From Leptogorgia sarmentosa (taxonomy: Eukaryota), in NCBI GenBank assembly GCA_964658305.1, contig OZ210885.1, forward strand, positions 10,850,001 to 10,914,000: a stretch of 64,000 bases of DNA, in the 5' to 3' direction. The notes under the pieces were generated by a model. The model was given only the letters and a program-made list of their open reading frames with translations, did no database searches and was not told the DNA's origin. Shown here one piece after another: positions 13,801 to 58,500 of the stretch. The position numbers were made by a program, and so were the translations under genes. The stretch's first letter is position 1. Each line of letters opens with the position of its first letter.

Positions 13801-16800
13801 CAACAATTGGGAAAATGTATTCCAAAACATGATATTCCCCACCAATCATTGCTTTATTGAACCATTAAGGAAGTTTATAATAAATAATATGTTTTATCCG
13901 AATGAAATAACAAATATAATTCTGAAGAGACTCTATTGAAGTAAGATCTTCAAATATTAACTCATACAGTATTACATACCTGTTGCGACAACGCATCTCA
14001 CCCAATCTGTATGGCCAACCAAACTGGCCTCAAAATTTAGTGTATCGGCTTTCCACAACTTGATAGTCTTGTCATCATATCGAACAGTAGCAATGAACTG
14101 TCCATCTTTGGTCGTACACAGCGACTCGACTCCCTCAGGAATACTTGTTGAGAGGTTTTCTCCGGTAGATACACAATACACTTTCAGCCCTACAACGCAT
14201 GATGGATACTCGTCAGACTGATGTTTCAATAATGTCTAACCCTAGACGATTTTGTGAAATCTTGTTTTTAATTGTGTCCCTCTCCGGCGCTGATCCTGCT
14301 CTGGCTGTTGCTGGCTTATGTTTTTACACTGCGTTTCACTGCGCTCTACACGACGTTTACAGTTAACCGCTGGTTTGAACATACGCAGTCGCTGGAATCC
14401 TCAAACCAGCTGTTGCAATTATTGTTTAAATATGAACAATTTGTACTTTTGGCGAAGGTTGAGAGGTGCTACTCAAACAGACGTATCTGGTTTTCCCAGG
14501 AAATCATTTTACTACAGCTACGTTGTAAAACTGCTGTTCCTGGCATCAAACACAAAAAGAATTAGTGAACATGGTCCAATCACACGATACGAAGCGTTAG
14601 CTGTTTGTAAATTTCATAAACCCACCCTGTACCATAACTACATTGTGGTCAAATTGTATGCATTGTACAGGGCATCCATCCAGTGGTACTGTTGGTAAAA
14701 CTTGGTTACAGATCGCGAAAGTTACAACCGTGAAGCAAGGGCCATGTATGGCAGTCGGGCTTCGTTCAAAATAATGAAATTATACTTTGTTTTGAAATGT
14801 AGTCGATTATGTACAACAGGTTACAGGTACGAATTCAGATAAAATGGTTGAAATGTACGACGGATTAAGAACGAGCTCTCTTTCTCTCCAACACGTTTCC
14901 GAAAGTTGAAATACAAATTTTTAATTTTTTTTTTTTCACTGAGTATATACCGCACGAAATAAAGACAAACATCATTGAAATCCTAATAAACTGATCTTTC
15001 GAACGGTGGGTCGCATGTTAGTTAAAAAACAACACAAAAAAAAAATAAAGATTGATCTTCGGAAACGTAAGGAATTAGCATCTATCTGAGAAAAACAGAG
15101 TCCAATATGTTGAAATCCATCTCCTTATTTCTCCCTGAAGCAGCATATTCATGAAACCTGTTTTATGTTCGTGTTATTTGCACATATAATAACATTTCTA
15201 CAAGCTTTTTTGCAATTGTAAAAAATTTCCGCACGCGAACGGCATTAACTAAAACAGGATAAATCAGGTTGCGCAATATAGTCTGAAACATGTGGAAAAC
15301 ATGCCTTTGATTACGTAGAGTGCGTATTCGTATGTTTTTCAGTCTTGGATAAACTCACTTCTGGTTTATTCGCACACGACATAAAAAACACGACAGGTGT
15401 CCCAGGAATTTCGCCCCCCCCCCCCCCCCCACCCAGCTAATTATAGTTACAGGACGAATTCGACCTAAATTAATATGGTGTTGGAGAAAAAGAGTACTTT
15501 TCGTAAGTAATACATTTTTCTAAAATGTATTAACGATTATGCTGCACGAATCTGACGAAATGCTTCTGAATTTCACACATTCGCTACGAAGCGAATACTT
15601 AACTCACTGTGATGACTGCGTCGCTATTTAGAGTGCACTCCCACTCAAATATGGAACGTTACGTGAAACCCAAGAATTGAAACAATATGCATCAATCCGC
15701 TTCATAAACGTTCTTGCATTAAAATGTGAAGCAAATTTTTTTAGTAAGCAACGATGTAGCTAATGTGCACAGAGGCGTAACTACTAGGAGCCCAACCTGG
15801 CCGGGGGCCCTGGGAAGAGATTTCTTCAGGGCCGTGGCTAATGTGAAATTCAACTAATTTTTATAAGTTAACAAAATGTTTGATATCATTCAGTAGCTAG
15901 CTGAAACAATTTTGTTGCCTTTTAAATTGTGCTTGGATGTATATTAATAGTTGTATATTACAGTCGAACTTTTACTGTTGTCATTGTTTCTGCTTTATGG
16001 GAACTTATTTTAGTGTGCTTCTTTTTACGGAACGTTTTTGCCTTTTGGGTATAATTGAAGCAGAAGAGATGTTAAATAGCTATAATATGTTCGATAAGAA
16101 ATAGCGCAGTTAAAATGCATATCTTATGCAGAATTCAGGAGAATATTTCGTAGAGTTAGCATAGTAAAAATGTGAAGCTAAGAGGTATAACTAAGAGGCC
16201 ATCCACAACAGTTCAACCGAGGGCCGACACTGGAGATTTACGCCGCTGAATTTGCAACGTAAAACAAACATTTTGTGGACGTACTTTCAAGTATTTTTAT
16301 TTGAAGAAAAAATAATTATTTTAAGTTAATAAAAGTATTCCAATATTCAATTTGGTACCGGCGGGGTAACATATTTCCGAAAGTATGATCATTTCCGGAG
16401 TTATTTGACAAACATAGTATGAAAAGGATTTAATTTTTTCTCCAATGGCATCGTTGCTGGCGTTCCTTCAGAACCGTTAAATCCGTACACGTCAGCAAAA
16501 TCTTATTTCTTATCGAAACTCGCGCACTTTAATAATAACTTTTAAGCAGAGCGGAAGTCGAGAAAACGTTTATGCAAATTTTCGTTTGCCTATTCTGAAC
16601 AACATTTTGATATCCTAGTTTGATTTGTGTTTAAGATGCTTACCAGCCTCGTACCCAGGCGCTTCTTAGCTTAGAGATATTAGCAGGAATCCAGATAAAT
16701 ATATAGAGATCGGGCGCAAGCGCGCAAGGGTTGATGGGCAGGCGCGACGGAGGAAGCGCCTGGCAGAATATGCAACAAACATGGCGGGCGACTTGTCCAT

Positions 16801-19800
16801 ATTCATAAATGCAAATGAGGAAATTGCTGTTCTTGATGAAATTGACAGGCCAGTCCATCGAGCGGTACATTATTCCGAACGGTGTAATTTCTTCTTCCGA
16901 ACTCGACGATACTATTGAAGCGAAATATTTAAACGAATCGAAACAACGTAGTGTGTAACTGTGTATGCGAAGCGAGATTTGTCAGAATCGTCATAAAATC
17001 AAGATGACAGTATAAAACTACCTTCGAAAGATAATTCCTGAAGCGATCTTTCCAAATCATCCATATTTAAGTGCAACCGGTGCGAGATTTTTCAAAAATT
17101 ATCACATTTTCAAGCTTTTCATACGCAGACCACTTTTTGCAAAAGTGGGACACGGAAATTTGCATATTCTGCCAGGCGCTCCACAAGTCCGTCGCGCCTG
17201 CCCATCAACCCTTGCGCGCTCGCGCCCGATCTCTATATATTTAACTGTATTCTTGCTGATCTCTCTAAGCTAAGTAGGTAGGTAGGTAGGTAGGTAAAAC
17301 TTTATTTGACTACGCTTACCCCTACAGCAAGAGCTGGTTTCCAAGGGGGGCGTAGATTTAGATAGTTAAAAAAAAATACAATTAGCTAATTGATACAAAT
17401 TATGGTCATGCATTACATTACTGTTGACAAACATTACAATACAATAACAAATACAGCTAATATATAATTGTTTACATGTTAAATTAATGTTAATATAATT
17501 CTAGAGGCTGAATAATTCTAATAAGCTAATTAATTAATTGGCCAGGTGACGTATATATGAATTAAATGAAGCAAGAGAAAATTTGTTTCCTGCTTCATCT
17601 GGAAGGCTATTCGACAATTTTGCTCCTCTGTAGCTAAGACTTTTTTTAAGATATTCAGTCTTAGGTTTGGGCAAAAAGAGTTTGGTGGAAGAGCCTCGCA
17701 TATTGTAGTAATAAGAGGAAGGCGTCCCTTGAAAAAGATCGATTAGTCGTTTTGGCGCTAGTTCATGGGTTATTTTATACATAAGACTTGCTACGAAATG
17801 TGCTCTGTGCTCATTTAAAGGTTTCAATTTCAATTCGTCCAGAGCAAGTTCAGATTGACCGTGTTCGTTTTTACGGCCAGTAATAACTCTAGCTGCCCTA
17901 TTTTGTAGTTTCTGGAGTCGATCAGAAAGTGTAGCGCCAATGGTATCCCAAACTTCGCAACAATAATCTAGGTGTGGTAGTATAAGTGCATTATAAGCAC
18001 ATATTAATGTATTGTGATCCACACAAGATTTTAGCTTTCTGATCGCCCCAATGCCGGATGAGATCTTCTTAGCAATTTTATCAATATGCTTGTCCCATGA
18101 TAGAAACTCGTCAATATGAACTCCAAGTGCTTTTGTTTCTTTGACCCTTTTAATTGGTGTATCACCAACAAATACGTTTGGAGCAGCAAGTAAATTATTT
18201 ATGTTGTACCGTGATCCTATTAATAGGTACTCAGTTTTGACAAGATTAAGAGATAATCTATTTGCAGAAAGCCATTGTTTGACGTTGGTAAGGTCATGGT
18301 TTATGGCCACCTCTACATCTTGAATTGATTTGCCAGATACAGTTAGAGCCGTGTCGTCGGCAAACATTCTTGTCGACGAGTACTCCAAACTGTTAGGCAG
18401 ATCATTTACATAGAGTGGGCCAAGAATTGAGCCTTGGGGGATTCCACATGTAACCAACTTCGTGCCCGAGAGAGCGCCATTAACGGAGCACATTTGGGTT
18501 CTATTCGTTAAATAGGATTCTAATAGGTTTAATGATGGCTTCTGAAGGCCATAAAGATTAAGTTTCTCTAACAGGATATCATGATTTATGGTGTCGAACG
18601 CTTTTTGCAGGTCCAGAAAAAGAGCTATATTAAACAGACCACGGTCCATATTAATGAACCATTCATTTGTACTATCTAAAAGAGCAGAGGCTGTAGAATG
18701 AAACTTCCTAAAACCAAATTGACGGGGAGAAAACAACTCCTGTGTGTCAAGATACTCTTGGAGTTGTTCACATAATACTTTTTCAAAAAGTTTACTTACA
18801 ACAGGGAGGATAGAAATCGGGCGATAGTTGTTTAATTGGTTTCGTGGGCCGTTTTTAACTATGGGAGTGACTTTTGCGATTTTCCACTCAGAAGGAACAG
18901 TTGCGCTTATAATGGCCATGTTGAAAATTTTTGTCAATGAATTTGTAACTACAGGAGCAGCAATGCGAATAATTTTAGCAGGGATTTTGTCGATTCCGGT
19001 AGATTTACGAGGATTTAGAGATAACAGAAGTCTGTATACATTCGATTCAGACACTGTTTGAAAATTAAAACTACTAGATGTTGTCGTTATGTAATCTTTG
19101 AAATTTCTGTCACCAGAATCGATATTTTTGGCAATATCTGGGCCAATATCAGTGAAATAATTATTAAAGCACTATAATTATTAAAGCACAGAAGCGCCTG
19201 GGTACGAGGCTGGATGCTTACCATCGTCTGTTCCAATAAACACTCGCTGATCATCTGCACTGAAATCCAGAGCATTAACGCGACTCTCCCCTTGGAACAC
19301 AAAAAGCTGTTCATAATTAACCATTCTCCAAAGGATTGTACTTCGGTCCCACGACCCCGACGCTAGTATTGTTCCACTTTGTGACACAGCCAAACATCCA
19401 ACTCCCTCAGAATGTCCCAATAGTTGTTGAACTTCTCTACCTGTTTATAAATAAGATATCACGTATATAAAAGGGTGTAATAGGTAATTTTCACTCACAT
19501 CGTTACTACATTGGGAGTACTTTTCAAAACATTGCGGCGATAAAATAAATGATTGAGACAAGTAACTACATTAACTAACCCATCAGCTACACTCTGTTTA
19601 CACCGCTAACTTCCATTGTTACTATTACGTCCGTATAGCAACTTAAAGTGCCTATATCAGGGTCAGGGAAATGACTTATTTATGTAGTTCAGGTGATTTT
19701 AAGAACATTTGCAATATATTTGGTAAGACGAAAATTTGATCTTCCTGTACTTTTCGGACCTCAAAGTTGGTAATTTTTTCAATTTTCCGTGAGTACAAAG

Positions 19801-22800
19801 TACTGGTAACTAATTGACATTACCGACGGAAGTGACGTAAAAAGGAGAACACGTCAAATATGCAAAGTATAAATGCCATAGGAAAACAAAGCGTTTGAGA
19901 CGAAATAGCGCTCGAACCTCTTTGAAATATAGACTTTTCGGTTAAAGTTCCTGTGAGAAGATGTCGTCAAGTTTTTCCGACAATTTTGACAGCCAACTAG
20001 ACTCGGATAGATTTTCCATAACGGAATATGTAATGCGAGCAAGCGAAGAACAATGGCAAAGTTTGCAACCGTACCAAGACGAACCGATTGCAAATGTTGC
20101 GTGGAGAAGCGTTAAAGGCAGAACTTGTCGTAGAGGAAGTTGGATCTGTGCAATCTGGCAAAGAAATGGTTGGATATACACAAATCCCGAATTCGTCGCT
20201 CTTTAGTATGGCTTTCAATTTCGCTTTATCGCCAGTCAAGCGAACATCGAAACGCCGAGTAAAATCTCCTGCATTAAAATGCCTGGAACATATCTTTGAA
20301 GAGGCAGATGGTTCAAAGTTTAATCGCCTTCTTCGAACAAAATCGACCCATTTCTTCCTTCGTTTTTTTGCCTCTGGTCGATCAACATTCGCAAAAGGAA
20401 TAACGTGCAGCGATATTCCTTCGTCTGAACTGGTAACATTCGAACATCCATAAACTGCAGACCTGTGTGGCATTTTAAGCCCATAAACGTTTAGAGCAGT
20501 AAGAAAAAATATTTATTTTCGAAGATACAGTGTTCAATGTTGCTGTTTTTACTATAAAGCCCTATTGTTGTCAACGCATGTGTTCTCTTTCTACGTCACA
20601 TCCCATAACTACTTACCAGTAATTGTATCTCACGGTTAAGCGCTAAAATTACTGAAAATTACCAACTTTGAGGTCCGAAAAGTACAGGAAGATCCAATTT
20701 TCGTCTTATCAAATATATTGCAAATGTTCTTAAAATCACCTGAACTACATATTAAATAAGTCATTTCCCTGACCCTGATATAGGCACTTTAAACAGCAAT
20801 GTAAGCGATAGACAAACACCGAAACGATCTTCAATACTAAAAACAAAATAACTGTAATTTTGCGGAATTTACTGTGGCGTGTTTTACAGGCGTGTGTTCT
20901 CATTCGTTACTTCTTGGGATTTCATAAAAGTATGCTCTCATCTTTGTTGTGCAAGTCCATAGATATAGGTATCGAGCCAACTTGAACGCTTGGGTAAGAC
21001 TCGCTACAGGTCCCTGTTGCCTCGATAACTAAAGTGGTAGAGTAACGGTCAATGCCAAACAATTTACTGAAACTTATAATATATTTACTAGTGTTTAAAA
21101 TTTAGTGGCTGATGTTGGCGGTAGAACAGGCGGTAGAACATGCATGAAGCTATGAACAGGAAATATTCTATACAGCGAATACCAATGATTGCACAGGAAT
21201 GTTGTCCTACTTGTATTTGTAATTACTGAACTTTCACATTTTAAAATTGGCATATATCCATTAATTTTATGCACACGATTTCTTAATAATTGTATGTTTT
21301 ATTGTTTAGAAGAAATAATATGTCACTCTGTCCGAATTGATTTTTATAGTTTGATTAATATGTTGCAGACAAAAGCATTCCCTCCAGCCATTTGTGAGAT
21401 TTTTTAATTTTTTACCCAGTAATCATTGATCCAGAAATGACTGAATTAATTTTTATCCCAGCGTAAATCTGGATGAACATGTCTCTTCAAGTTTCCAATC
21501 CAAATTTCAAATATCATCATATGACGACGACTACCGTAGATGATTGGCTAATTTTCTAATGAATTATCAATTACTTTACTTTAACCTTTGTTCCCTCACA
21601 CATAACAACTGCATATTAACTATATTCTCGTTTCAATGAATAACCAAGATCAAAGCTTTTGTTTAGCTAAAAAGGCATGTATGAAGATGTTTAAAATAGA
21701 GTCATAGTATATACGCTACAATTCAATTTGTCAGCTTCCAAAACTGAAACTTTTCTCAAAAACCGGGGCAGTGGGCTACAGGCACTGAGATATAATATTA
21801 CTGGAGAGAGTGCACTCGACTTCTTCCATACAAAGGGGTGAAGCCAAAAACATGACGGATTTTCCGTTGCTGACGCCACTGGTTCTTATTTCTCATATAA
21901 TTTCCACTGACCAACAGCGGTCTCATGTTTCCGACCGACGATTTTCCCTCTTTGTTTTTGTAAAAAAAAGCCGAAATTTTGTTTTTAGCTATATTGAAAA
22001 AATTAAGACATAAAGGCCGAACTTTTGCACGGCTGAAAAGGTTTCACAATCCTTATAAGAAAGCAGATTATTTGAACCAGAAAGGTAAATGTAATCCTTT
22101 TTTATGCAAAAAATTGAATAAAATATTTTCCAAAACGACTACCTTTCAAGTTTCAAATGGGAATTTCGAGGTCTGAATATCTGTGTCGCTTCATTTTTAA
22201 CTAACTAGAATAGATGTCGCTACTTCTTCGGTCGTCTTGAAGATATCAAGACGATATGATATATCAAATGATATCAGAATGTCAAACTAGGGATCCAAGG
22301 ATAGTGCAAAGTTTCTAAGGCCCGTTTCATACGTCTAATTTTGGTCGCATCGAATACAGTTCAAACAATGGATAATGAAGTTAGTCATCTCATTATTCAT
22401 TGTTTGAATTGCATTCGATGCGACCAAAATTCCACGTTTGAAACGGGCCTAAGAAGACATTAAAATCATATTTTGAAAATAATCACTATTTTATTGTCAG
22501 AAAGCAACTGGCAGTCGCAGCAGCGCGTGTGTTAAAAGCAAATCAGATAAATCTCTGACCTCTGACCTTTTTAAAATACATACACATCGTACTGATACTT
22601 CTGCGTCGTAATAAAATATCCCGTTTATTCACAGTATCAGGCCAACGTTAAATTTACTTTTGTATCCCTGTATATGGTTTAGTTCTTTTAGTATCGAAAA
22701 TTCTGTAAATCCCTGGTATGTCTGGTAAACAAACATTTGCGAGGCCGGAAGACGGGAAGAGTCGAAGACGGCGAAAACAAACACGGAAGCTATAAATGCG

Positions 22801-25800
22801 AAAGCTCGCAAATATGTTGGCTATCATCAACCATATTAACTAAATACAATTTAAAATTATGGCTATCTTGTTGTGACGAGTTCTACTGTGTTACACATCT
22901 GAGTTTGCCCGCTATTTGCGAATTGCGATGGCAATGTCGGCCAACTAAATATTTTAATATAATACGCACGGCGGCTGGTTAACAGTAGCTATTTTAAATT
23001 GTGCATGACGAGCCAAATACAAGTTTCTGCTAATAATGATAATAAATTTAAATCTCTATATTCATTGCTGATATATAAAGAACATTTTAACTGCTTTATC
23101 AACGTATTCAGACATGTTGGCCACATGTTATCATCATAGTGAATTACTGATTCACGGTCTCACTCTTAGCGTCCGCCATATTGTGTAATTTCATTCCCTG
23201 ATTCCCCAGACATTGTGCTGAGTTGCAATTTTTGCAAAAACTTAAATTCCGGAGGGGCCTCCGCCACTGTGTACTGTATTGTGCGCTTCTTTGATCACAT
23301 TTCTCATCTAACAAACTTTCGTATCAATGAGAACAACTGCAAATAATGATGACCAATGATATATAACTGCAATCGAATCATTTTTGTTCAAACATTCCAA
23401 GGATATCAGTCAACTACGGAGTTTCGCATATCAGGAGAATTTGGGACGCTCCCCCCGGAGTTTACACTATGAATGAATCGCTGAATCGCTGAATCGCTGA
23501 ATAGCTGAATAGCTGAATCGCTGATGTGAATTTTCGCCCCTCATCACAATACTGCAAAGTTAAACTTTGCACTAAAAAGGAAGAAAACCGAAATATCCTT
23601 TGCAAAAACCAAAATATTTTCGCCAAAACAAAGTTAGTTGTGGTCAGTGGTGCTCCAATGAAAATTAGGAACCAGTGGCGTGGATTTCAATGAATCCACG
23701 CCATAATTTTGGCTTCACTTTTTGATGCCGTGCACTCTCTCCAGTATTTCTTTAGCTCAGTGGCTACAGGTCTAAAAAATTTGGATAATTATCCGTGTAA
23801 CGAAATGAGATTTGGATGGCGTAATATTATTAATACTTACTAGTTATTTGCGCGAAATATGACGTGTGTATACAGTGGTTTATTTTACACTGCACCATTG
23901 CTTTAGCTGAACCGGTGTAACTGTTTCTTGAAAAAATTCCAACATCTATTTCAAGCATAAAAAGGTCAGCACTCATTTTCAAGCTGAAATTTAGACCCCG
24001 TCGTCGAGTTTGTGGCGTTGTAGATTTTAAGGTCCCTACTATTAATTATTGGACGACGTCGCACGAAATACCGCGAGTTATCGTTGGCGAGCGGATCAAT
24101 TATTTGCCGATTCCGAAAAGATCAGCACGTAATTAATCTGAGAACAACCGATATATAACTGAAGCAAAGCATAGCCACATTAACTGGAGTGATACGAAGC
24201 ATAATGGGACGAGCCCTGAGGCCAGTGGCCAGTGAGCTCCATGAGATTATATATAGCGCCGTAAATTTCCGACGTAACATGTACTTTAATAAACTTTTTA
24301 TCTACTTAGTTCATTATCAGCGCTAACGAAAACAATTGAAGCTGAAGGCTAGTACAACGTTTCTCGACAAGTGGGGATTTTGCACTGCAAAGTTTTGTTA
24401 ATTAATAACGTCACCCGACTGGCTTTGCGAAATTGAGAGCGATTTCAAATTTGCTCAGTTTTTTTATACACGTATATCGCGCAGCCGCTCAACTTCATAA
24501 CTCAGAACTGATGATTCTTTCAAATGTGAGTGAGGATATGGTTGCACATATAATTACAATTACAAGCAGAGGCGGCATTGAATCTGTGTTTTATCCCTTT
24601 TCCGGACCGACGATCGGTCAAAAAAAAAAAAAACTATTGAAAACCCCAAACCTTGCCATTAGTTTTATCCACAGTACGTTACCACACGGTTACCTACCTG
24701 TGTCAAGATCAAAGATTGTGATTGAACCATTCCTTAAACCACAAATGACAAGAGTAGCAGATGGAGTATTGGACGTCGCTAATGAGTATACTTCTGAATC
24801 AAACGTTTTTCGAAAGATCTCAGGGCCGCCAAGATCTAAACATGAGAATTCCGGTATAAGACGGCAAGTCTCCGTGCATGTTGCACGAAGTTGCTCTAAT
24901 AGCGTCTTTATCCCCGGATACTCTTCATAAGATAGCAGTCTGCCTGGAAAACAAAAATACACAACAGTATTACCGCACGTATATAACAAATTCAGAAAAT
25001 TTAAAATAGCATTTAAAGATGAAGACAATTTCTGACCGGGAAAAAATAAAAACTGAACAACTAACGGGATTATACTAGCTATATATATATCTGTTTCTTG
25101 ATTATTAATATAATAGGTTCTTAAAATTCATCATATGAGTTCTTTTCTAATTTCTAAAGGAAGTTTTTGATTGTTTTAACAAAATGTTCGTTCCCGTTCA
25201 GTGAATTTCATATAAAGGGGACATAAAGAAAAAACGTTTTTGAAAGGTTTGCAATTGCATGTTAAAATGATGTTGTATTCTGTTTTATATTGTGACAGTA
25301 AAAAGATAAGTAATTTATTTTATGATAACGGAACGAGTATTTATGAATTGATTTATTTCCGCATATGGTACACTGACAAGGGTTAATTCTGCTATATACC
25401 AGCAGTTGTCATGCTTAGTTGCTAGTTACAATTTTGTCATCAGAACCAACGATTAACAGAGTATAGTATGGACTATTGCTTACTTGATTAAGTTAGCAAT
25501 AGTCCATAAATATCGACTTCAGTTCTGGGAAGAATAATCCTTCTTAGGTCGTGTCTTCAATTGTCAAACTCGTTTTGAGACAATCATTCTTTGCATGAAA
25601 CTTTGTATAGGCTTCAGAAATTGCTACATGTTAGTATTTGCAGGTTTTTGAATCACATTTTTGTGGTATCTTGTAGAGAGAAATTGTACCAACATGATGA
25701 TCTTTGAATGAAATTAAGCTTTTTATTCTACGCCTTTTGTCTTATAAATGTGCTCATTAAATAAACCAACTTTTTCATGGGAATGTCTAGACGGTTCACG

Positions 25801-28800
25801 ATCACATTTTCTAGCATGTCGCAAATGTTTTATACATCATGAACTAGTTTTGTTGATAAAAGTTCACCTTTTATATTCGTATTAAAATCATTGTTACTTA
25901 GCTGTAAACTAGCATCGGATGTTGTTTTTGAATACTTGTGATTGACCTTTGATGCATTTTCAAGGTCATCTGAACTTTTGATTCATACAAGTAAGCGTCT
26001 CATAAGCGTAATTGTTTCATATATAAATTTTTCATAATTTCAGATAAGTTAGCATAGTTTCTCGATTACACAAGGCTCGCTGGCAAGTGAAGGGAGTGGT
26101 GATAACACATTGGCTATCTCCTCGACGTTTTCCTCGATTACATAAGGCTCGCTGGCAAGTGAAGGGAGTGGTGATAACACATTGGCTATCTCCTCCACGT
26201 TTTCCTCGATTACATAAGGCTCGCTGGCAAGGGAAGCGAGTGGCGATAACACGTTGGTTATCTCCTCGCCTTTTACTTTTAAAACCAGCTCACTGACGAG
26301 TCAAGAGGTTTTCAGAAATGTCGTAAGGTTTGCACTTCATTTTCTTCGATCGTATACTAACAATTCTTTGTGTGTTGGCACGAACTCATATGACGTTGTG
26401 CGACAGCCACATTGATTCGTATCGATCAGCCAGCTAATTATTTTCAATACACGCAGCGTGTTGTGCACGTGTTATGGTTTTATAATGATCTTTGGCAACT
26501 TACTCAACTGAGTGTACTTCCATATTTAGTGAGCCAATCACCTTGAATTACCCAAAGCATGCTTTACACGTGCTATACGAGGTACTGCGTCATGCGTAGA
26601 CGCACATAATGTGACGATTTTACATTTGCTGTAATTACAGCGTTTACATTTTGTGGTCTTGTGGTAGTCAAACATTGTTAACCACTTCACTGATTGACGG
26701 CCCCACTCTAAGCGTTCGCCATATGTTGTGTAGAAATTTTAATGCCCGAATGAATGCTGAGTTTGCAATTTTTGCAAAAATTGAAATTCCGGAGGGGCTT
26801 TCCGGCATTGTGTACTCTAACTTGTGGGCTTCTTCACCTATAGCTTACTTTTCTATTCATTAGAGTAACTGCAAACCATGATGATCAACGATTTATAGCT
26901 ACAATTGCATAATTTTTGTAAGGATATCAGTCAATTGTGGAGTTTGTACATGGGAAGATTTTGGAAAGCACCCCCCATGCCCCCTCCCCCATCGAGTTTA
27001 CACTATGAATGAATGACTGATGTGAATTTTCCCCACTCATCAAAATAATGCCAAATTTCTTCGAAACTTTGCACTAAATAGTGAGGCAACTTAAACAAAT
27101 CATAGAAGAATGAGACAAATTAAAGTTCATTATTTGAATTACCTAGGAGTTGAGGACAGATAGAATCTGGGTTTTCGTTGATGACATCGGCAGAGAACAT
27201 TAACGACGATTTGAGAAGTTGGATTTCCTCCGATTCTGTGTCCACAAAACGAAAATCTGATATTACAGAGAATACGCTGACGTGTTTCGCTTTTTGTTTG
27301 AGCCAGTGTAGATCAAACAGCAACTGGAGTAGTTCACTATGTCGTCCCGAAGAATAAATGTGATAGGGTAGGTACTTGAAATAATAGTCTTTTTGGCAGG
27401 TAGTTGAATTATCATTCCAGTCACCATCCACGCACAGGCCACAAAGTGTCTTTACGAACTTATCCTGAACATCATTTAGTGTACCCATGTCTTGAAGTTT
27501 TGTCTGGGCAAAATCCAAAAGCAAGTCATGGACACGATAGCTTTTCTTTCCGCGGAGTTCAGGCCCTGAAATTGATCGAAATGTTAGGAAATTTGTACTA
27601 GAGGCGGACAATTTTTGAAATCTCAAAATCGCCGTTGAGTAGTATAGAAGGAGTTGCGCTATCAGGTTTTCGTAAATACGAAATGGCTTAGTCACAATAA
27701 GAATAATTATTGGCTATATCGAGCCAAGAATAATGCAATATCTGTAAAAAGACACATAGACTTAAGGTAGTCTTGGTAAAACTCCTAATTCCTAAAAAGC
27801 AAACAATATTTTTTAATTTACATGATTCGCCTTATTATTACAAAACATCAAAAAATCCACTTGATCCACTTTGCAACCTGTATTACTGGTTCACTGACTG
27901 TTGTAAATTTTCGTTACTAATGACAATACTGCAAAGTGAACTTGGCACTGAGATAAAAAATTTTCGGAGGATGTGCAGATCAAAACCGTTAAAAGATAAA
28001 ACTGTACCTTTTAAGATCAGCGACTTTCTCTCGAGCACAGCAAGTATATCTTTGTGTTTCTGGTTCTGTATCGAACACCACAGCAGCTCGAGTACATCTG
28101 ACGGTATATCTGTATCCTCTGGAAATATAGCCAAATAAAGAAACATCTCGCGTACACTTTCGTCCAGGCGTTGATAGCTCACATCAATGACTGCTAAGAG
28201 GTTATCATAAGGATAATCGACTTTGGGAAATAATGAACGAATTCTCTCCAGGTCAGCATTTTTAAGATCATCTAAAACATCCTCCCAGTCTTGTTCCGCA
28301 CGAGTGTCCGTTAAATTTGAACCCACCAGTGACAGAGCCAGCGGTAAACCTCGACACTGCTCTAACAGGTCTGCAATAATTCGCCGTAAGTTTGGCGTTA
28401 ACTGTTCGTCTGGACGTATCCCAGCGCTCTGATACAACAGCCCTCGGGATTTATCTTGTGACATAATAACAAGTTCGTACTTAGTAATTCCCGAACCGCA
28501 GAGAACAGTAGCATCTCTAGTTGTTATTAGTAATTGGCATTTGCCAGATAAGCAATTGAATACAGCAGCGTCGTCCACCTTCCAAACATCATCAACAACA
28601 ACCAAACAGTCTTTATCAATCTAAAAATGAGTTGAAAACTAGCTCAGAAATCGTATCTGTTAACTGCATTCAAAGGTTGGTAAAATTTACAACTCTTACT
28701 GGCCAAGGACTTTAAAGGCTCGCTTGCAATTTTTTAGTGCCATTTTCTGGCCTTTCTGATATATGAGGCACATGTTCATAGGTGGATTTATGACGAGTGT

Positions 28801-39550: not shown

Positions 39551-39592
39551 CTAATCCTGAAGATGACTAAATGAAGTCGAAACGTTGAATCA
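39551..39592 (+). ncRNA. Minimal hammerhead ribozyme-like motif (inverted pLTR copy)
   Basis: aatc-CTGAAGA-tgact aaatg aagtc-GAAAC-GTT-gaatca. Confidence 0.6.
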
Positions 39593-48515: not shown

Positions 48516-48700
48516 CGCCAACATGCTTCTCAACGAATATATGGCCAGAAATGTCGAAGTTTGGTACACAGTAAAGTACGAAACAGTAAAAATTAACTTA
48601 CATTACATTAAGAATCAAATATTTTATTGTTTCGTACTTTACTATGTACCAAACGTCGACATTTCTGGCCATATATTCGTTGAGAAGCACGTTGGCGACA
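48512..48700. repeat. Palindromic MITE-like hairpin
   Basis: TCGCCAACATGCTTCTCAACG...CGTTGAGAAGCACGTTGGCGA. Confidence 0.75.
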
Positions 48701-49301
48701 TCTCTGTCCGTCCTCAAATTGCGCTCTTCCTTCAACGATCTCCATCAAGCAAAACAATCAAACAAATAAACTTTAGACTGGCCATGTTTTACTCAAAACA
48801 ATTTCTCCCAAACAATTTCACTAGCCTGTGCCTGACAGATGTAAATTTCCTCACTGACATATGACACTGATTACACCGATTTAAATAATATGCTCACTCC
48901 TCAATTAAAACAAACGCGCCTTTATTATTGCCGGAAGTGAGACTAGACCGTGAATAACACTGACACATCCGGTGGAGTCTCCAGACGTAAACAAAGCTAG
49001 CACATGCGCAAAAGGGACTGTAACCTCTCTTTAAGGAAATACTTTGCTTTCTTTCTAGGCATAATTTGTCATTACAATATTAGAATGCTGTTGCAAGCAG
49101 GTATTTTTGTGCAATAATTGGGAAAATTTATTCCAAAACATGTTATTCCCCTCCAATCATTGCTTTATTGAACCATTAAGGAAGTTGATAATAAAGAATA
49201 TGTTTTATCCGAATGAAATAACAAATATAATTCTGAAGAGACTCTATTGAAGTAAGATCTTCAAAATGTTATGAAATATTAACTCATACAGTATTGCATA
49301 C

Positions 49302-49511
49302 CTGTTGCGACAAAACATCTCACCCGAGCTGTATGGCCAACCAAACTGGCCTCAAAATTTAGTGTATCGGCTTTCCACAACTTGATAGTCTTGTCAAGAT
49401 ATCCAACAGTAGCAATGAACTGTCCATCTTTGGTCGTACACAGCGACCTGACTTCCTCAGGAATACTTGTTGAGAGGTTTTCTCCGGTAGACACACAATA
49501 CACTTTCAGCC
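49302..49511 (-). CDS. Gene B WD40 exon (last one found)
   Basis: Paralogue of 13980-14189; 11 nt differences by hand count. Confidence 0.88.
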
Positions 49512-52500
49512 CTGCAACGCATGATGGATACTCGTCAGACTGATGTTTCAATAATGTCTAACCCTAGACGATTTTTTGAAATCTTGTTTTTAATTGTGTC
49601 CCTCTCCGGCGCTGAACATGCTCTGGCTGTTGCTGGCTTATGTTTTTACACTGCGTTTCACTGCGCTCTACACGACGTTTACAGTTAACCGCTGGTTGGA
49701 AGATACGCAGTCGCTGGAGTCCTCAAACCAGCTCTTGCAATTATTGTTTGAATATGAACAATTTGTACTTTTGGCGAAGGTCGAGAGGTGCTACTAAAAC
49801 AGACGTATCTGGTTTTCCCAGGAAATCATTTTACTTACAGCTACGTTGTAAAACTGCTGTTCCTGGCATCAAACACAAAAAGAATTAGTGAACATGGTCC
49901 AATCACACGATACTATGCCGTTTGTAAATTTCATAAACCCACCCTCTACCATAGCTACATTGTTGTCAAATTGTATGCATTGTACAGGGCATCCATACCA
50001 GTCGTGGTACTGTTGGTAAAACTTGGTTACAGATCGCGAAAGTTACATCCGTGAAGCAAGGGCCATGTATGGCAGGGCTTCGTTCAAAATAATGAAAATA
50101 TACTTTGTTTTCAAATGTAGTCGATTATGTACAACAGGTTACAGGTACGAGTTCAGATAAAATGGTTGAAATGTACGAAGGATTAACAACGAGCTCTCTT
50201 TCTCTCCAACCCGTTTCCGAAAGTTGAAATACAAACTTTTAATTCTTTTTTTTCCACTGAGTATATACCGCACGAATAAAGACAAACACCATTGAAATCC
50301 TAATAAAATGATCTCTCGAACGGTGGGTCGCATGCTAGTTAAAACACAAGACACACAAAAAAATAAAGATTGATCTTCGGAAACGTAAAGCATTAGCATC
50401 TATCTGAGAAAAACAGAGTCCAATATGTTGAAATCCATGTCCTTAATTCTCACTGAAGCAGCATATTCATGAAACCTGTTTTATGTTCGTGTTATTTGCA
50501 CATATAAAAACATTTCTACAAGCTTTTCTGTAATTCTAAAACAGGATAAATCAGGTTGCGCAATAGTCTGAAACACGTGGGAAACATGCCTTTGATTACG
50601 TAGGGTGCGTATTCGTATGTTTTTCAGTCTTGGATAAACTCACTTCTGGTTTATTCGCACGCGACAAAAAAAACACGACAGGTGTCCCAGGAATTTCGCC
50701 CTCCCATAATTAATTGCCCCCTCCCCCCACCCAGCCAATTATAGTCATTGGGCGAATTCGACTTAAATTAATATGGTGTTGGAGAGAAAGAGTACTTTTC
50801 GTAAGTAATACATTTTTCTAAAATGTATTAACGATTATGCTGCACGAATCTGACGAAATGCTTCTGAATTTCACATATTCGTTACGAAGCACAAGTTGAA
50901 TACATACAGTGAATATTAAACTCACTGTGATGACTGCGTCGCTATTTAGAGTGCACTCCCACTCAAATATGGAACGTATTTAAAATAAGAACTGAAACAA
51001 TATGCATCAATCCGCTTCATAAACGTTCTTGTATTAAAATGTGAAGCCAATTTTTTTAATAAATAGCGATGTACACAGTGGCGTAACTACTAGGGGCCCA
51101 ACCTGGCCGGGGGCCCTGGGAAGAGGTTTCTTCAGGGCCGTGGCTAATGTGAAATTCAAATATTTTTTATTGAAACTGGAGATGCAAAAAAGTTCGAAGT
51201 TAACAAAATGTTTGATATCATTCAGTAGCTAGCTGAAACAATTTTGTTGCCTTTTAAATTGTGCTTGGATGTTGACAGTATATTAATTGTTGTATATTAC
51301 AGTCAAACTTTTACTGTTGTCATTGTTTCTGCTTTATAGGAACTTATTTTAATGTGTGCTTCTTCTTACGGAACGTTTTTGCCTTTTGGGTATAATTGAA
51401 GCTGCAGAAGGGATGTTAAATAGCTATAATATGTTCGATAATAAATAGCAGAATTAAAATGCATATCATATGCAGAATTCAGGAGAATATTTCGTAGAGC
51501 TAGCATAGTAAAAATGTGAAGCTAAGAAGTATAATTAAGAGGCCATCCACAACAGTTCAACCGAGGGCCGACACTGTGTAAAACAAACATTTTGTGAACG
51601 TACTTTCAAGTATTTTTATTTGAAGAAAAAATAATTATTTTCATTTAATAACAGTATTCCAATATTCAATTTGGTACCGGCGGGGTAACATATTTCCGAA
51701 AGTATGATCATTTGCGGAGTTATTTGACAAACACAATATGAAAAGGATTTAATTTTTTCTCCAATGGCATCGTTGCTGGCGTTCCTTCAGAACCGTTAAA
51801 TCCGTACACGTCAGCAAAATCTTATTTCTTATCGAAACTCGCGCACTTTAATACTAACTTTTAAGCAGAGCGGAAGTCGAGAAAACGTTTTTGCACATTT
51901 TCGTTTACCTATTCTGAACAACATTTTGATATCCTTGTTTGATTTGTGTTTAAGATGCTTACCATCGTCTGTTCCAATAAACACTCGCTGATCATCTGCA
52001 CTGAAATCCAGATCATTAACAACACTCTCCCCTTGGAACACAAAAACCTGTTCATAATTATCCATTTTCCAAAGGATTGTACTTCTGTCCACCGACCCCG
52101 ACGCTAGTATTGTTCCACTTTGTGACACAGCCAAACAGCTAACTCCCACAGAATGTCCCTGTAGTTGTTGAACTTCTCTACCTGTTTATAAAATAAGATA
52201 GCACATATATAAAAGGGTGTAATAGGTAATTTTCACTCACATCGTTACTACATTGGGAGTATTTTTCAAAACATTGCGGCGATAAAATAAACTAGGGATC
52301 CAAGGATAGTGCAAATTTCTAAGGCCTAGGTCAATATTGGGAGTCAACTACGGAGTTTCGCATGTCAGGAGAATTTGGGACGCTCCCCCCGGAGTTTACA
52401 CTATGAATGACTGAATGACTACATGACTACATGACTACATGACTACATGACTACATGACTGATGTGAATTTTCGCCACTCATCACAATACACTAATTATT

Positions 52501-55500
52501 GAGACAAGTAACTACATTAACTAACCCATCAGCTACACTCTGTTTACACCGCTAACTTCCATTTTTACTATTACGTCCGTATAGCAACTTAAACAGCAAT
52601 GTAAGCGATAGACAAACACCGAAACGATCTTCAATACTAAAAACAAAATAACTGTAATTTTGCGGAATTTACTGTAGCGTGTTTTACAGGCGTGTGTTTT
52701 CATTCGTTACATCTTGGGATTTCATAAAAGTATGCCCTCATCTTTGTTGTGCAAGTCCATAGATATAGGTATCGAGCCAACTTGAACCCTTGGGTAAGAC
52801 TCGCTACCGGTCCCTGTTGCCTCGATAACTAAAGTGGTAGAGTAACGGTGAATGCCGAACAGTTTACTGAAACTTATAATATATTTACTAGTGTTTAAAA
52901 TTTAGTGGCTGATGTTGGTGGTAGAACAGATAGATAATTGGAAAGCATGCATGAAGTTATAAACAGGAAATATTCTATACAGCGAATACCAATGATTGCA
53001 CTGGAATGTTGTCCTACTTGTATTTGTAATTACTGAACTTTCACATTTTAAAATTGGCAGATATCATTTATGCACACGATTTCTTAATAATTGTATGTTT
53101 TATTGTTTAGAAGAAATAATATGTCACTCTGTCCGAATTGATTTTTATACTTTTATTAATATGTTGCAGACAAAAGCATTCCCTCCAGCCATTTGTGAGA
53201 TTTTTTTATTTTTTACCCAGTAAACATTGATCCCGTTCAAGAAATGACTGAATATTTTACTATATGGATGAACATGTCTCTTCAAGTATCTAATCCAAAT
53301 TTCAAACATCATCATATGCCGACGACTACCGTACATGATTGGCTAATTTTCTAATGAATTATCAATTACTTTGAGTGTAAACCTTTGTTCCCTCACCCAT
53401 ATCAACTGCATATTAACTATATTCTCATTTCAATGAATAACCAAGATCAAAGCTTTTGCTTAGCAAAAAAGGCATGTATGAATATGTTTATAATATAATC
53501 ATAATATATACGCTATAATTGAATTTGTCTGCTTCCAAAACTGAAACTTTTCTCAAAAACTGGGGCAGTGGGCTACAGGTCTAAAAATTTGGATAATTAT
53601 CCGTGTAACAAAATGAGATTTGGATCGCGTAATATTATTAATACTGTACTTAGTACTTATTTGCGCGAAATATGACGTGTGTATACAGTGGTTTATTTTA
53701 CACTGCACCAATATATTTTTTTAATTTTATCAAACTGTAACTATCACCAGACTTTTCTGTCATTCCTAATAGAAAGACAACTACATTGTGGATAAGTTCA
53801 AAAATGCTTTCATAGCAATTTTTAGGATTAGGGACCTTATGAACTACAACGTTACCAACTCGACAACGAGCTTTCCGAACAAACAAATTTTTATGCTGAA
53901 CAAAAACCAAGCATAAATTGTGGTATCAACAGCTTTGTTATCAACGCAACGTTAAGCCAAGCTTTATAAAGGGACCTTACGATTACAGTACGGAAACGGC
54001 AACGAGAACGTGTAGAGACTGGCGCTAGTGCGCGGCTGACGTCGCGGTTTCCCGCAAAAATTTAACCTTACGATTGCGCCAACGGGAACGAGAACGTGCA
54101 GACTGGTACTAGTGCGCGGCTGATATCCCAGGGTTTCCCGCGAAAATTATTGTTTTGCGATTGTAGATGAAAAAACAAAAACAAAACTTCAAAAACTACG
54201 ATATGCCAAAACTTCGAGAAGCAATTGCGTTTGCCTATGCTTGTAATGTAATAGACGAGTTAGAATACGCGTTGTTATATGATGCGAACAAACCAAGGAA
54301 CCTAGACATTCCATATTTTGTCTACGACGAATTTAACCTAAATTCCATGACGGATGATGAATGCAAAACGGAGTTTCGATTTTATAGAAACGATATTTTT
54401 AATCTAATAGACGTGCTTCGTATACCACCTGAACTTACTTGCAACAATGGTGTTAAAGTGGATTCAGTTACAGCAACCTGCATATTTTTAAAACGTTTCG
54501 CCTATCCATGCAGGTATGCAGATTTAATACCTCGATTCGCTAGACCAGAGCCTCAGTTGTGTATGATTGCCAACACAACAATGAATTTTATTTACGACAC
54601 TTGGCATCACTTGCTCACAAGCTTTGAACAGCCGTGGTTAGATCGTGCGAATTTGCAAGCTTTTGCAGAGGCTATTCATTTAAAAGGTGCAGCACTAAAC
54701 AACTGCTGGGGCTTTATAGATGGGACTGTCAGACCCATATCCAGGCCTGGCAAACATCAAAGAGTAGTGTACAACGGACATAAAAAAGTCCACTCATTAA
54801 AATTTCAGTCAATTGTTGCACCAAATGGCTTAATAGCGAATTTATATGGACCCTTGGAAGGCAAGCGCCATGATAGTGCAATGTTGGCACTATCACAGGT
54901 TCTTCCCCAATTACGAATCCACTCTTTTGACACAAATGACAATGTACTTTGTATATATGGCGATCCAGCCTACCCAGCGACTCAACAGATTCAAAGTCCC
55001 TACCAAGGAGCAATGCTAACTGCCCTTCAGAAGGAGTGGAATAAATCCATGAGTCAAGTCAGAGTTTCAGTGGAGTGGATATTTGGTGACATTGTCAACT
55101 ATTTCAAATTCCTTGATTTTAAAAAAAATTTGAAAATACACCTGAGTGCTGTTGGAAAAATGTATATAACCTGTGCACTGCTACACAATGCTAGATCCAT
55201 ATTGTACGGATCAACAACTTCCAAATTTTTTGGTGTTGACCCTCCTACACTTGATGAGTATTTTCAATAAATAAATATATTTTTCTAATTATTAATAACT
55301 ATTAATAAATGTTAAATATTAACAGCATGAACAGGTGTTCTTGTAACACACAACATTGTTGGTCAATTGCAGCTGTACCCTGTTCTCGTTAAAAATGCAA
55401 TAAGCAAGTCTGGTTAAAAACCCAAGAATTAGAAACCAGGTCTTCGAACACTTGAAAATTGTACAGTATAAACCTAATGAAATATATGCAAGGTGACACG

Positions 55501-58500
55501 GTATTAGGGCCAATGTGTACAGCTGCACCAATTTTAAACATTATTTTGAGCAAAATGTACTCTGTAGTATACTGTAAACATTGTACAGTAACAAAATAAA
55601 ACGTTATCAGAAATGTCAATAACAAATTAAATGTGGACTCATCCACATTCCACTGCAAAGTAACCTACTTGGCAAACTTCTGTAGTAAGGTCAAAAGTGC
55701 ATGGCTTTGTTGCTGCTGTTGTTGCAACATAGCCATATTCATATTGTGCATTTGTTGCAAAGACTGTTCCTGTAGTTTAAAGGCACTTTCCTGTTGGCTT
55801 ACCCTTTCTTCATGCTCTTTCTTCCTTAATTCCAGTTCTTTTTCCCTTACATTTCTTTCCCATTCCAATTCTTCCTTTTTGAGATCCATCTCTTGTTTCT
55901 TCAACTCCAACTCAGTTTCCTTCTGTTTCCCATCCAATTGAACTTTTTCTTTAATAAATGCTATGGCATCAGCCCCACTTGTTCTCTTCTTTTTTGGCTT
56001 TTCAGTATGATTTCTTTCTCTGGTTTCTTTGAATGATTCCAAAGACACTTTTCTCATTTCTTGAATTTGAGTAGCTTCTTCTTCAGCCTTTCTCTTCTTT
56101 TTTTCTTCTCCTTCTTCAGCCTCTTCAAACAAACCAACAATTTCCTCCATTAATTGATCTAATTCTGTATGCTCGGGGGATATGCCAGTGCTCTTTTCTT
56201 CTTCACGAACTTTCGTCTTGTATCTTCTTTCAAGCAGAAGGTACCTGTCCCTCAGAGATCTTTGTGTAACCCGAAATGTCAATTTATCACATTTCCCTAA
56301 ACGTATGGCCAGGTTAGCCCAGGTGTCACCTCTTTCTGTGCTACCTTTTTTGTGCAACCATGGCTGAAACAACATCATATCTTTGAGGAAATCATTTGCT
56401 TCTGACCACTTCATTGGAGGGGTGCTAAACATAGAGAGTGCAGTACCGATAAGTCAATGTAATACAAGAAATTAAATTGAATGAAGTAGATTTTCAGTAG
56501 TATTCCTATGTGCATTTACCAACTATAGATGAAATCACATGGTGCCAAATTGGGTTACTTTTTAATGTACTACATACTACAAGTCAAAATTTGCAAACTA
56601 CAAAGCATCAGTACTAGTGATGTTGTGGTACAACAAAAGCTCAACTCACATTGTGCTTTTATAAATGGTGATATATTTATTGTACTTTTATATATTATAG
56701 TGATTCCAACGAATAAACAATTTCATAAAATCGTAAACCCTGAACAACATAAAAGCCCCTACATGAAGCACATGCACGAAACAGTAACATTTTGTCATAT
56801 ACAACAAAATTCATTTCGATTTGTTCCACATAGCGAATTAATGCAAAGCACTTAGTTTGCATCAAAATACTCTAGCTATTTGTTATTTTAGCTTACTCTG
56901 TAGTATGACCTCAAACAACAGTATGCATAATTCAACTTTAAACTTACCTGTTGCCTTTTGACATGATGAATAAAAATATAAAATGACAATAATGGGTCAC
57001 ACGTTTTCACACAACGCCAAACTAGTCGAAACGGCGTCGTGTTAGCCTGCGACGACGGGAGCTTCCCGCCACGCGCATGCGTAGTTTTCACTTTTGCCGA
57101 TTTGGCGTCCCCGTTGCCGTTCTCGTCATGTTATCGTAAGGTCCCTTATAACGTCTTCAAAGCAACGTGAAGGCTGATTACAACGTGAGAGCTGTAACTT
57201 CAAGTTGACTACACAGCAACGATCGCATTGCTTTAGCTGAACCTATGTAACTGTTTCTTGAAAAAATTCCAACATCTATTTAAAGCATAAAAAGGTCAGC
57301 ACTCATTTCATTTCAACCTGAAATTTATACCCCGTCGTCGAGTTTGTTGCGTTTTAGATTTTAAGGTCCCTACTATCAATTATTGGAGACGTCGCACGAA
57401 ATACCGCGAGTTATTGTTGGCGAGCGGATCAATTATTTGCCGATTCCGAAAAGAGAAGCACGTAAGTAATCTGAGAGCAACCGATATATACCTGAAGCAA
57501 AGCATAGCCACATTACCAAGAGTGATGCAAAGCATAGTGGGACGAGCCCTGAGGCCATTGGGTACCAGTGAGCTCCCTGAGATTATAGCGCCGTAAATTT
57601 CCGATGTAATCAACTACTGTACATGTGACAGCACGAATGTTAAACACGTACTTTATTAAACTTTTTATCTATTTTGTTCATTATCAGTACTAACAAAACA
57701 GAATTGAAGCTGAAGGCTAGTACAACGTTTCTTGACAAGGAATAATTCAAAGTTTTGTCAATAAATAACGTCACCCGAGTGGCTTTGTGAAATTGAGAGC
57801 GATTTCAAATTTGCTCAATTTTTTATACACGTACATATATGGTATATCGCGCAGCCGCTCAACTTGCATAACTCAGAACTGACGATTCTTTCAAATGTGA
57901 GTGAGGATATGGTTGCACATATAATTACAATTACAAGCAGAGGCGGCATTGAATCTGTGTTTTATCCCTTTTCCGGACTGACGATCGGTCAAAAGAAAAA
58001 AAACTATTGAAAATCCCAAACCTTGCCATTAGTTTTATCCATAGTACGTTACCACACGGTTACCTACCTGTGTCAAGATCAAAGATTGTGATTGAACCAT
58101 TCCCTAAACCACAAATTACAAGAGTAGCAGATGCAGTATTGGACGTCGCTAATGACCATACGCTGGAATCAAACGTTTTTCGAAAGATCTCAGGGCCGCC
58201 AAGATCTAAACATGAGAATTCCGGTATAAGACGGCAAGTCTCCGTGCATGTTGCACGGAGTTGCTCTAATAGCGTCTTTATCCCCGGATACTCTTCATGA
58301 GATAGCAGTCTGCCTGGAAAACAAAAATACACAACAGTATTAGCGCACATAACAAATTCAGAAAATTTAAAATAGCATTTAAAGATGAAGACAATTTTTG
58401 ACCCGGAAAATATTAAAACTGACCAACTAACGGGTTTATCTGATTATACTGTAATATAGCTATATCTGTTTCTTGATTATTAACATAGTAGGTTCTTAAA

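Follow-up and report, generated by a model that had tools for sequence, protein, structure and literature searches.

Background

Is the WD40 sensor surface of an animal protein shaped like Apaf-1 a fixed reader of one unchanging ligand, or a moving front in an arms race? Animal receptors of the NLR (nucleotide-binding, leucine-rich-repeat) kind are usually pictured as recognising microbial patterns that change little; for WD40 sensor faces, evolution by arms race has been documented mainly in fungi (PMC4986451; the literature cited here was available in part, and what is said of it refers to those parts). Octocoral repertoires of STAND proteins (signal-transducing ATPases with numerous domains) are large; work on them in the sources available has so far gone into counts, not tests. 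The question is posed by the window, by which we mean the whole stretch of 64,000 nucleotides (nt) from the octocoral Leptogorgia sarmentosa analysed here (GenBank assembly GCA_964658305.1, contig OZ210885.1, positions 10,850,001 to 10,914,000, forward strand). On its minus strand it carries gene 1, an NB-ARC-WD40 receptor gene, and a second copy of the block that holds the first three WD40 exons of this gene. An original prediction, made by a model from the sequence alone, held that the ligand-face residues of these recently duplicated exons are hypervariable and that the receptor is a diversifying sensor of non-self or pathogens rather than a conserved cytochrome c sensor. Between the near-identical copies, change at the predicted binding-face residues is about ten times that of neutral DNA, and gene 1 is probably a diversifying intracellular immune sensor.

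Two near-identical copies of a sensor block

Self-comparison of the window reveals two minus-strand copies of one block, each of three exons (A, B and C in copy 1; A', B' and C' in copy 2; coordinates in Table 1) and 95% identical between copies. A recount agreed with every figure originally given for the paired exons: 675 nt with 37 differences, of which six are synonymous, and 21 amino-acid changes (13 from single, six from double and two from triple hits), the eight multiply hit codons being exactly the set named before. There is no insertion or deletion (indel), and every AG/GT splice site is intact. The 31:6 ratio of nonsynonymous to synonymous differences, which had been offered as a signal in itself, is no evidence of selection, because the average omega (the ratio of the nonsynonymous to the synonymous rate, dN/dS) is 1.0, the neutral expectation: Nei-Gojobori (NG86) counting gives dN 0.057, dS 0.056 and omega 1.02, and the one-ratio codon model M0 gives 1.00. 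In the introns 177 of 4050 columns differ (4.4%) across five alignable blocks, columns close to gaps being masked. Triplets hit more than once number eight in the exons against 1.5 expected from the flanking introns (P = 1e-4).

Change is concentrated on the predicted binding face

Three positions on each WD40 blade, R1-2, R1 and D-1, contribute to top-face binding according to Wu et al. (PMC3419727), and the test sites, 14 codons in exons A to C, were fixed beforehand from that source because post-hoc choice of sites was to be avoided. Ten of the 14 are changed, as against 11 of the 210 other codons (Fisher P = 4e-9), which bears out the earlier observation that changes recur at equivalent positions of the repeats. 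Counted in nucleotides, 19 of 42 (45%) differ at these codons versus 18 of 630 elsewhere in the exons and 4.4% in introns. A codon model written for this analysis, with the predefined sites as a separate class, estimates omega at about 22 for them and 0.47 for the rest (likelihood-ratio test statistic, LRT, 43; P = 5e-11), and the blind site model M2a is preferred to M1a (LRT 28.0, P = 8e-7), so that the class of codons with omega above 1 on which the original prediction turned is present.

The concentration survives harsher counting. With one event allowed per codon, 10 of 14 stands against an intron triplet rate of 12.3% (P = 5e-7; P = 3e-6 without codon 50). When the set of sites is shifted by one codon, or by three to six, it catches zero to two changed sites; a shift of two catches four or five because R1-2 and R1 then overlap. 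Codons outside the predefined set change at a sub-neutral rate (17 of 210 differ, P = 0.03). Older divergence linked to the variable sites was rejected as an explanation, since the introns are no more divergent close to the exons (3.2% within 100 nt of them) than farther off (4.9% beyond 300 nt); nor do the synonymous changes cluster, three of six lying near a variable site (P = 0.22). An adenine-directed, template-driven mutator was also considered and rejected: the codon changes span all four bases, and self-comparison of the window yields no template copy.

Where these residues sit on the folded protein was judged from an AlphaFold2 model of the WD40 region of a relative, P0002 (925 amino acids; predicted local distance difference score, pLDDT, 84.7; predicted template modelling score, pTM, 0.49), read by its secondary structure rather than its coordinates. 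In blades 1 to 5 the aligned positions are predicted to lie immediately ahead of strand a, at the second residue of that strand and within the b-c turn, and 15 of the 21 changes would fall in the d-a loop, at the start of strand a, or at the end of strand b and in the b-c turn. In the relative's model, then, most of the variable residues gather at strand a and the b-c turn, as had been foreseen; from standard WD40 topology they would share one face.

The same codons vary in public sequencing runs

A search of public sequencing runs gave 24 runs among the matches listed, none of them with half of the query words and hence none near-identical over the stretch. Four runs from three studies (X1, X2, X6 and X8) were compared over exon B and its flank, with 136, 76, 82 and 70 contigs respectively covering the exon. 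Of the 49 variant rows 40 were listed, 35 of them within exon B, and among these 35 no fewer than 22 fall in just four codons (93, 94, 96 and 135), while 16 fall at three of the six predefined exon B codons (P = 5e-9, the rows not being independent). Codon 94 is the same in both window copies yet has four variant rows in the runs, an out-of-sample prediction that came true. Forms of blade 2 that could be phased in loose contig ends read, by hand translation, GHS-NR-V-R (X1, X2), GHS-SE-V-T (X6) and HS-KA-V-T (X8), beside GHS-EG-V-G and GHS-VG-V-S in the window copies. At the first base of codon 135, X2 has three different letters, none of them the window's, which, if the run is not a pool, implies at least two diploid loci. 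Contigs give no copy number and merge alleles with paralogues; of the proposal that these codons carry balanced polymorphism, the part that stands is that the same codons vary in four runs, and such polymorphism is inseparable here from divergence between near-identical paralogues.

At the two edges of exon B, the loose ends of X8 run into the last part of exon A and the first part of exon C, and depth in the intron falls from more than 1000 to about 40, so that X8 behaves as RNA with A, B and C spliced together. Over 19.3 kb, four presumed-RNA runs gave mostly repeats and diverged paralogues, with 40 of 219 variant rows listed, and served only for approximate exon joins. As a separate observation, the gene 1 letters at window positions 19320, 19397-19399 and 19420 are common to almost no contig of the four runs, and where gene 1 has V122, copy 2 and each of the eight listed relatives that have a residue at this position carry D; gene 1 may thus have private, possibly slightly harmful changes.

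A variable and a conserved group of relatives

A search with the NB-ARC exon gave 54 matches, the top 14 of which (52-68% identity) form one group whose seven named members are all octocoral (Dendronephthya, Paramuricea, Xenia). Exon A as protein found one match among 58 candidates, a representative search found 13, mostly single-exon pieces, and a metagenome scan found three loci, the useful one being the contig of P0002. The window copies and 15 relatives were aligned and compared over blades 1 to 8, with P0003, P0006, P0007 and P0008, which have no WD40 sequence, excluded and the non-homologous tail of P0012 trimmed.

The proteins fall into two kinds. In a variable group of five, the window's included (10 pairs), identity at the top face is 0.18 versus 0.67 elsewhere, and in a conserved group of eight (28 pairs) it is 0.76 versus 0.70, although pairs have members in common and the blade 4 D-1 column is gapped in the conserved group. 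Among non-overlapping pairs, top-face residues are identical at 4 of 14 positions between the window copies and at 6 of 24 between P0011 and P0002 (versus 212 of 302 elsewhere), and at 14 of 23, 18 of 21 and 7 of 9 in the conserved group. Members of the latter with a complete N-terminus bear death-fold-type domains (Death on P0014; DED read in P0010 and P0004). These octocoral death-fold NB-ARC-WD40 proteins, labelled 'Apaf-1-like' (Dendronephthya P0004/P0005, Xenia P0013-P0015), are direct relatives of gene 1, 52-64% identical over the NB-ARC exon and collinear with it over the WD40 region, but differ in that their top face is at least as conserved as their scaffold. In a quick NB-ARC tree, drawn without an Apaf-1 sequence and rooted at its midpoint only, the window's group has support of 98 and is nested among the death-fold relatives, which, if that root holds, suggests that the variable sensor arose from one with a conserved ligand.

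A side observation concerns deeper ancestry: exon 5 (28008-28620) scores 110-122 bits against the prokaryote-looking NB-ARC proteins P0016-P0018 and 72.5 bits against human Apaf-1, and from such scores the gene 1 family may stem from a prokaryote-type NB-ARC lineage.

Gene 1: architecture and putative effector

The model of gene 1, guided by full-length relatives, has 14 exons from 36125 to 1281, all with GT-AG introns, which together give 4509 nt and 1503 amino acids without a stop; its last blades likely lie beyond the window start. In order, its domains are an N-terminal HEPN-like domain, a likely coiled coil, NB-ARC, winged helix, APAF1_C and WD40, an arrangement supported by the transcript-sized relatives P0002 and P0011. 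NB-ARC (PF00931) matches exon 4 at E 6e-6 and exon 5 at E 2e-18 with Walker A and B motifs intact, APAF1_C matches at E 7e-11, winged-helix matches stay under the curated cut-off, and the WD40 profile matches six of the eight exons A to H. These domains agree with the proposed identity as a STAND receptor. In the model of P0002 there are 82 strands of at least three residues, or about 21 predicted blades (at the pTM given above); strand 28 is followed by a break that suggests three propellers, exons A to C forming blades 1 to 5 of the first. The first eight WD40 repeats of gene 1 are diverse among themselves, with a mean pairwise identity of 23% and a maximum of 32%.

Table 1. Features of the window on which the analysis bears (window coordinates)
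Feature	Coordinates	Strand	Description
Shared block copy 1	13720..25560	-	introns 4.4% divergent outside insertions
Exon 1	35540..36125	-	HEPN-like (DZIP3/CXorf38-type) domain, R-x4-H motif
Exon 2	34249..34343	-	linker
Exon 3	31441..31636	-	coiled coil likely
Exon 4	29646..29977	-	NB-ARC, Walker A intact
Exon 5	28008..28620	-	NB-ARC with Walker B, HD1, winged helix
Exon 6	27143..27565	-	APAF1_C helical domain (HD2)
Exon A	24698..24943	-	246 nt; HD2 end and WD40 blade 1; variable codons 50, 52, 70
Exon B	19222..19440	-	219 nt; blades 2-3; variable codons 93, 94, 96, 112, 135; spliced to A and C in X8
Exon C	13980..14189	-	210 nt; blades 4-5; variable codons 174, 176, 193, 216, 217
Exon D	11083..11320	-	WD40
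Exon E	10021..10259	-	WD40
Exon F	8135..8232	-	WD40
Exon G	4622..5030	-	WD40
Exon H	1281..1885	-	WD40; gene likely runs past window start
Shared block copy 2	49031..58945	-	recently common with copy 1
Gene 2 HD1/winged-helix exon	63663..63998	-	old paralogue, cut by window end
Gene 2 APAF1_C exon	61852..62262	-	old paralogue, 68% nt identity to gene 1
Gene 2 exon A'	58068..58313	-	246 nt; pair of A
Gene 2 exon B'	51963..52181	-	219 nt; pair of B
Gene 2 exon C'	49302..49511	-	210 nt; pair of C; last exon found

The N-terminal domain of gene 1 is likely a HEPN ribonuclease (RNase). The same N-terminus is found on P0002 and P0011 and, in all, on 15 relatives, both in the gene 1 family and among STAND proteins of Dendronephthya and Mytilus that have TPR or ankyrin repeats; all 17 aligned domains keep R145 and H150 of the R-x4-H motif. 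Its structure model is all-helical (pLDDT 81.5). In the Atlas it stands at 0.98 to clusters with HEPN_DZIP3 or DUF4559 on 11-38% of members, a fold search ranked the C-terminal domain of Swt1 second (Z 6.9, root-mean-square deviation 3.5, 119 residues aligned) with the HEPN toxin 7ae2 at Z 5.9, and the HEPN_Swt1 profile matches the relative P0056 weakly (E 0.11). Among P0056-P0069 the domain occurs on an expanded Dendronephthya/Mytilus family with STAND, TPR, MYND and beta-helix parts and on a Mytilus nSTAND3-ankyrin protein; as far as such domain combinations tell, it is a mobile effector module.

Several other elements lie within gene 1. A decayed NACHT-type exon (30660-30879, minus strand; NPHP3_N, E 1e-5), its P-loop altered and its frame interrupted by a stop, occupies the intron between exons 3 and 4, and may be the remnant of an older HEPN-NACHT gene that was the source of the HEPN module for the NB-ARC-WD40 body. 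The intron between exons 6 and A holds a 72-nt tandem repeat (26061-26268, minus strand; 2.9 copies) with two open frames. A 2567-nt insertion at 16646-19212, with terminal inverted repeats and a 545-amino-acid reverse transcriptase frame (RVT_1), has a 9-nt target duplication by which the splice donor of exon B is copied, and is present neither in copy 2 nor in the loose ends of X1, X2 and X6. A THAP-domain element with inverted ends (19650-20790) lies in the A-B intron of gene 1 only.

That gene 1 might after all be a conserved, Apaf-1-like cytochrome c sensor with a change-tolerant surface is a reading to which we give next to no credence. From NB-ARC onward it does follow the domain order of Apaf-1, which is also its best solved relative by sequence and ranks second to third by fold. 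It has no CARD and instead the HEPN-like N-terminus and about 21 predicted blades; moreover, close relatives share 18% of binding-face residues, and the pattern expected of a conserved ligand sits in the death-fold sister group instead. The class of codons with omega above 1 and its clustering on the predicted top face thus uphold the original choice of a diversifying sensor over a cytochrome c sensor, while the sensing of non-self or pathogens stays an inference.

A mosaic second copy

Copy 2 is put together differently from gene 1. Its winged-helix and helical exons share 55% amino-acid identity with those of gene 1, and an approximately unbiased (AU) test rejects sisterhood of the two NB-ARC halves (P = 0.016), yet exons A' to C' are sisters of A to C (support 100/99) and the block is joined in phase to its different NB-ARC half. 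From 49282 to 36143 no downstream exon was found for copy 2 at E < 1 (2922 six-frame window segments), and read-through past C' meets a stop seven codons into the intron. With an old NB-ARC half, sister exons A' to C' and no later exons, copy 2 is mosaic and truncated in this assembly. It was nonetheless constrained for most of its history, because its 675 nt show no indel or stop where the introns lead one to expect about 3.7 indels per lineage (P ~0.03), and because derived residues occur on both lineages, gene 1 and copy 2. The intron phase after C' equals the phase before D, 37,981 nt away.

Copy 2 may be a conversion product with later loss of its 3' part, a donor block, an alternative 5' module or an assembly artefact. 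The three-exon block, of which several near-identical copies exist, has probably passed from one paralogue to another through duplication or gene conversion; as a case of sensor exchange, the mosaic fits conversion, duplication or assembly error. Within the window no repeats were found at the block's 3' breakpoints. Around copy 2 we record a Harbinger-like transposon at 53710-57226, in the A'-B' intron of copy 2 only, with a DDE_Tnp_4 frame (54167-55270, plus strand) and a 262-amino-acid frame (55665-56453, minus strand), and a pair of 1.25-kb inverted repeats (45930-48515; 95.6%) about 500 nt beyond the block's 3' edge. Just upstream of the 5' edge, broken frames and local duplications (59335-60467, minus strand) presumably resemble a Helitron replication protein; one scanned piece of these frames had no Pfam match, and they are possibly related to movement of the block.

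Could copy 2 instead be an allelic haplotype or the product of a mis-join, its differences old balanced polymorphism and its mosaic an artefact? Two haplotypes of a marine invertebrate could differ in their introns by 4.4% and by numerous indels, the edges of the block are abrupt and intronic, and exons D onward are absent from copy 2. Against this, the block is in phase with an NB-ARC half that is only 55% identical and not its sister, and the three letters of X2 at codon 135 need more than one diploid locus unless that run is a pool; we consider the idea improbable, and the signal of selection stands under either reading.

Neutral decay, in which a dead duplicate gathers clustered multi-nucleotide mutations on relaxed surface loops, is much less probable again. 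It would account for a mean omega of 1.0 and for the truncation of copy 2, and a model with free multi-nucleotide rates absorbs the blind site signal. Yet decay is capped at the intron level (4.4% of nucleotides, 12.3% of triplets), far from the 45% of nucleotides and 10 of 14 codons at the predefined sites; the other codons are sub-neutral, changes fall on both lineages and the same codons vary in four runs. Neutral decay is thereby largely refuted.

What the receptor may sense

The reading that we favour, and hold to be probable, is that gene 1 encodes a diversifying intracellular immune sensor whose first propeller binds a pathogen-type ligand and whose effector is HEPN-like. STAND proteins exchange ADP for ATP and oligomerise on activation. 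In gene 1, the face of the first propeller would bind a foreign or non-self protein that itself evolves quickly, the NB-ARC lock would open on binding and allow nucleotide exchange and oligomerisation, the HEPN-like domains thus brought together would pair into a composite RNase site, and the destruction of RNA would stop or kill the cell.

Several observations weigh against this. The mean omega over exons A to C is about 1.0, only two full codon sequences entered the selection tests, and when the rates of double and triple mutations are left free the blind comparison of M2a with M1a falls to an LRT of 2.9 (P = 0.24), although the predefined-site test remains significant with such rates free (P = 2e-6). 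The contig data are unphased and cover one exon, with 40 of 49 rows listed, and among these no row falls at the predefined codons 112, 137 and 153. No transcript was seen in which exon 1 of this locus is joined to its NB-ARC exons. For the effector, neither a Pfam scan of the window's N-terminal domain (E <= 1) nor Foldseek (E <= 0.001) gave a match, recognition by the Atlas reaches 2038 against a mark of 2300, and the Z score of the Swt1 match is not above that of unrelated helical bundles.

The same diversifying receptor might be aimed at a polymorphic protein of its own species, in colony allorecognition comparable with het-d and het-e, and this we regard as unlikely, if less so than the haplotype explanation. 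HNWD receptors distinguish allelic forms of a host protein (PMC12222747), the variable positions of gene 1 match the spacing of HNWD selected positions (if the register is the same), and several variants occur within single runs. An RNase-type effector equally fits antiviral defence, however, there is no linked partner gene nor fusion/rejection genetics, and the papers matched by a search on soft-coral allorecognition, judged by title and start of abstract, include none on the gene 1 family.

Beyond the single receptor, one may imagine an octocoral repertoire of HNWD-like kind, in which three-exon blocks with distinct first-propeller faces are swapped among NB-ARC backbones to make combinatorial non-self sensors that kill by RNase. 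We put this forward tentatively, as possible but doubtful. Blocks would be exchanged by gene conversion, or by splicing of the truncated upstream copy into exons D to H of gene 1 across 38 kb, as the matching intron phase would allow.

The locus offers codon-level evidence, at sites fixed in advance, of an arms-race mode in an animal Apaf-1-shaped protein. Its variable and conserved sister groups form a natural experiment, from a fixed-ligand death-fold sensor to a diversifying receptor with an enzymatic effector. With exact residues and variants named, a search for the ligand has its starting material, and octocorals gain candidate loci for disease resistance or colony recognition.

Comparison with known systems

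Apaf-1 has two WD40 propellers, of seven and eight blades. This layout is not matched by gene 1, for which the model of P0002 predicts about 21 blades. Gene 1 resembles Apaf-1 and the expanded cnidarian and amphioxus CED-4/Apaf-1 family in its NB-ARC, winged helix, APAF1_C and WD40 propellers, and differs in its HEPN-like N-terminus, three predicted propellers and hypervariable binding face; no CARD was found, exon 1 having no Pfam match and resembling HEPN clusters. By the architecture read from its sequence it is not an Apaf-1 orthologue. Invertebrate Apaf-1 paralogues with DD, DED, CARD or TIR N-termini have been described (PMC2246300), and the available part of that survey contains neither a selection analysis nor a HEPN form.

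HEPN domains on cnidarian STAND proteins are likewise known, and in anthozoans such effectors have expanded, with a proposed antiviral or apoptotic RNase role (PMC3710099, PMC8260672, PMC10236652); Dendronephthya gigantea alone has 83 HEPN-NACHT proteins (PMC8260672). The anthozoan proteins with DZIP3-like HEPN and NACHT or NB-ARC share with gene 1 a HEPN effector on a STAND receptor. These surveys differ in that they count domains, the stony-coral NB-ARC proteins being mostly TPR-bearing, and as available they report no site-level diversifying selection on a WD40 face. Searches of the wider, mostly open-access literature, judged by title and start of abstract, turned up no paper in which an animal NB-ARC protein has such selection on its WD40 face.

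A further likeness is to the fungal HNWD/NWD proteins (Podospora het-d, het-e, het-r and nwd), which combine a STAND ATPase with a WD40 sensor (PMC12222747, PMC13449251, PMC4986451), have a few hypervariable top-face positions under diversifying selection, as the gene 1 family does, show signs of exchange between paralogues and bear an N-terminal enzymatic or death effector. Selected HNWD repeat positions are 10, 11, 12, 14, 30, 32 and 39 (PMC12222747); the spacing from 14 to 30 equals that from R1 to D-1 in blade 2, from which we infer the same register, and 12 of the 28 codons then equivalent in exons A to C are changed. The correspondence with HNWD sites that had been claimed holds for this spacing and count. 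Gene 1 departs from HNWD in having NB-ARC rather than NACHT, a HEPN-like effector rather than HET, and about 21 predicted blades rather than 14; its repeats are 23% alike on average against 80-100% (PMC13449251), and the unit common to genes is a multi-exon block here and a single repeat there. Animal NLRs with internally conserved repeats also exist (PMC13449251). By this analogy gene 1 works like an HNWD but is not one.

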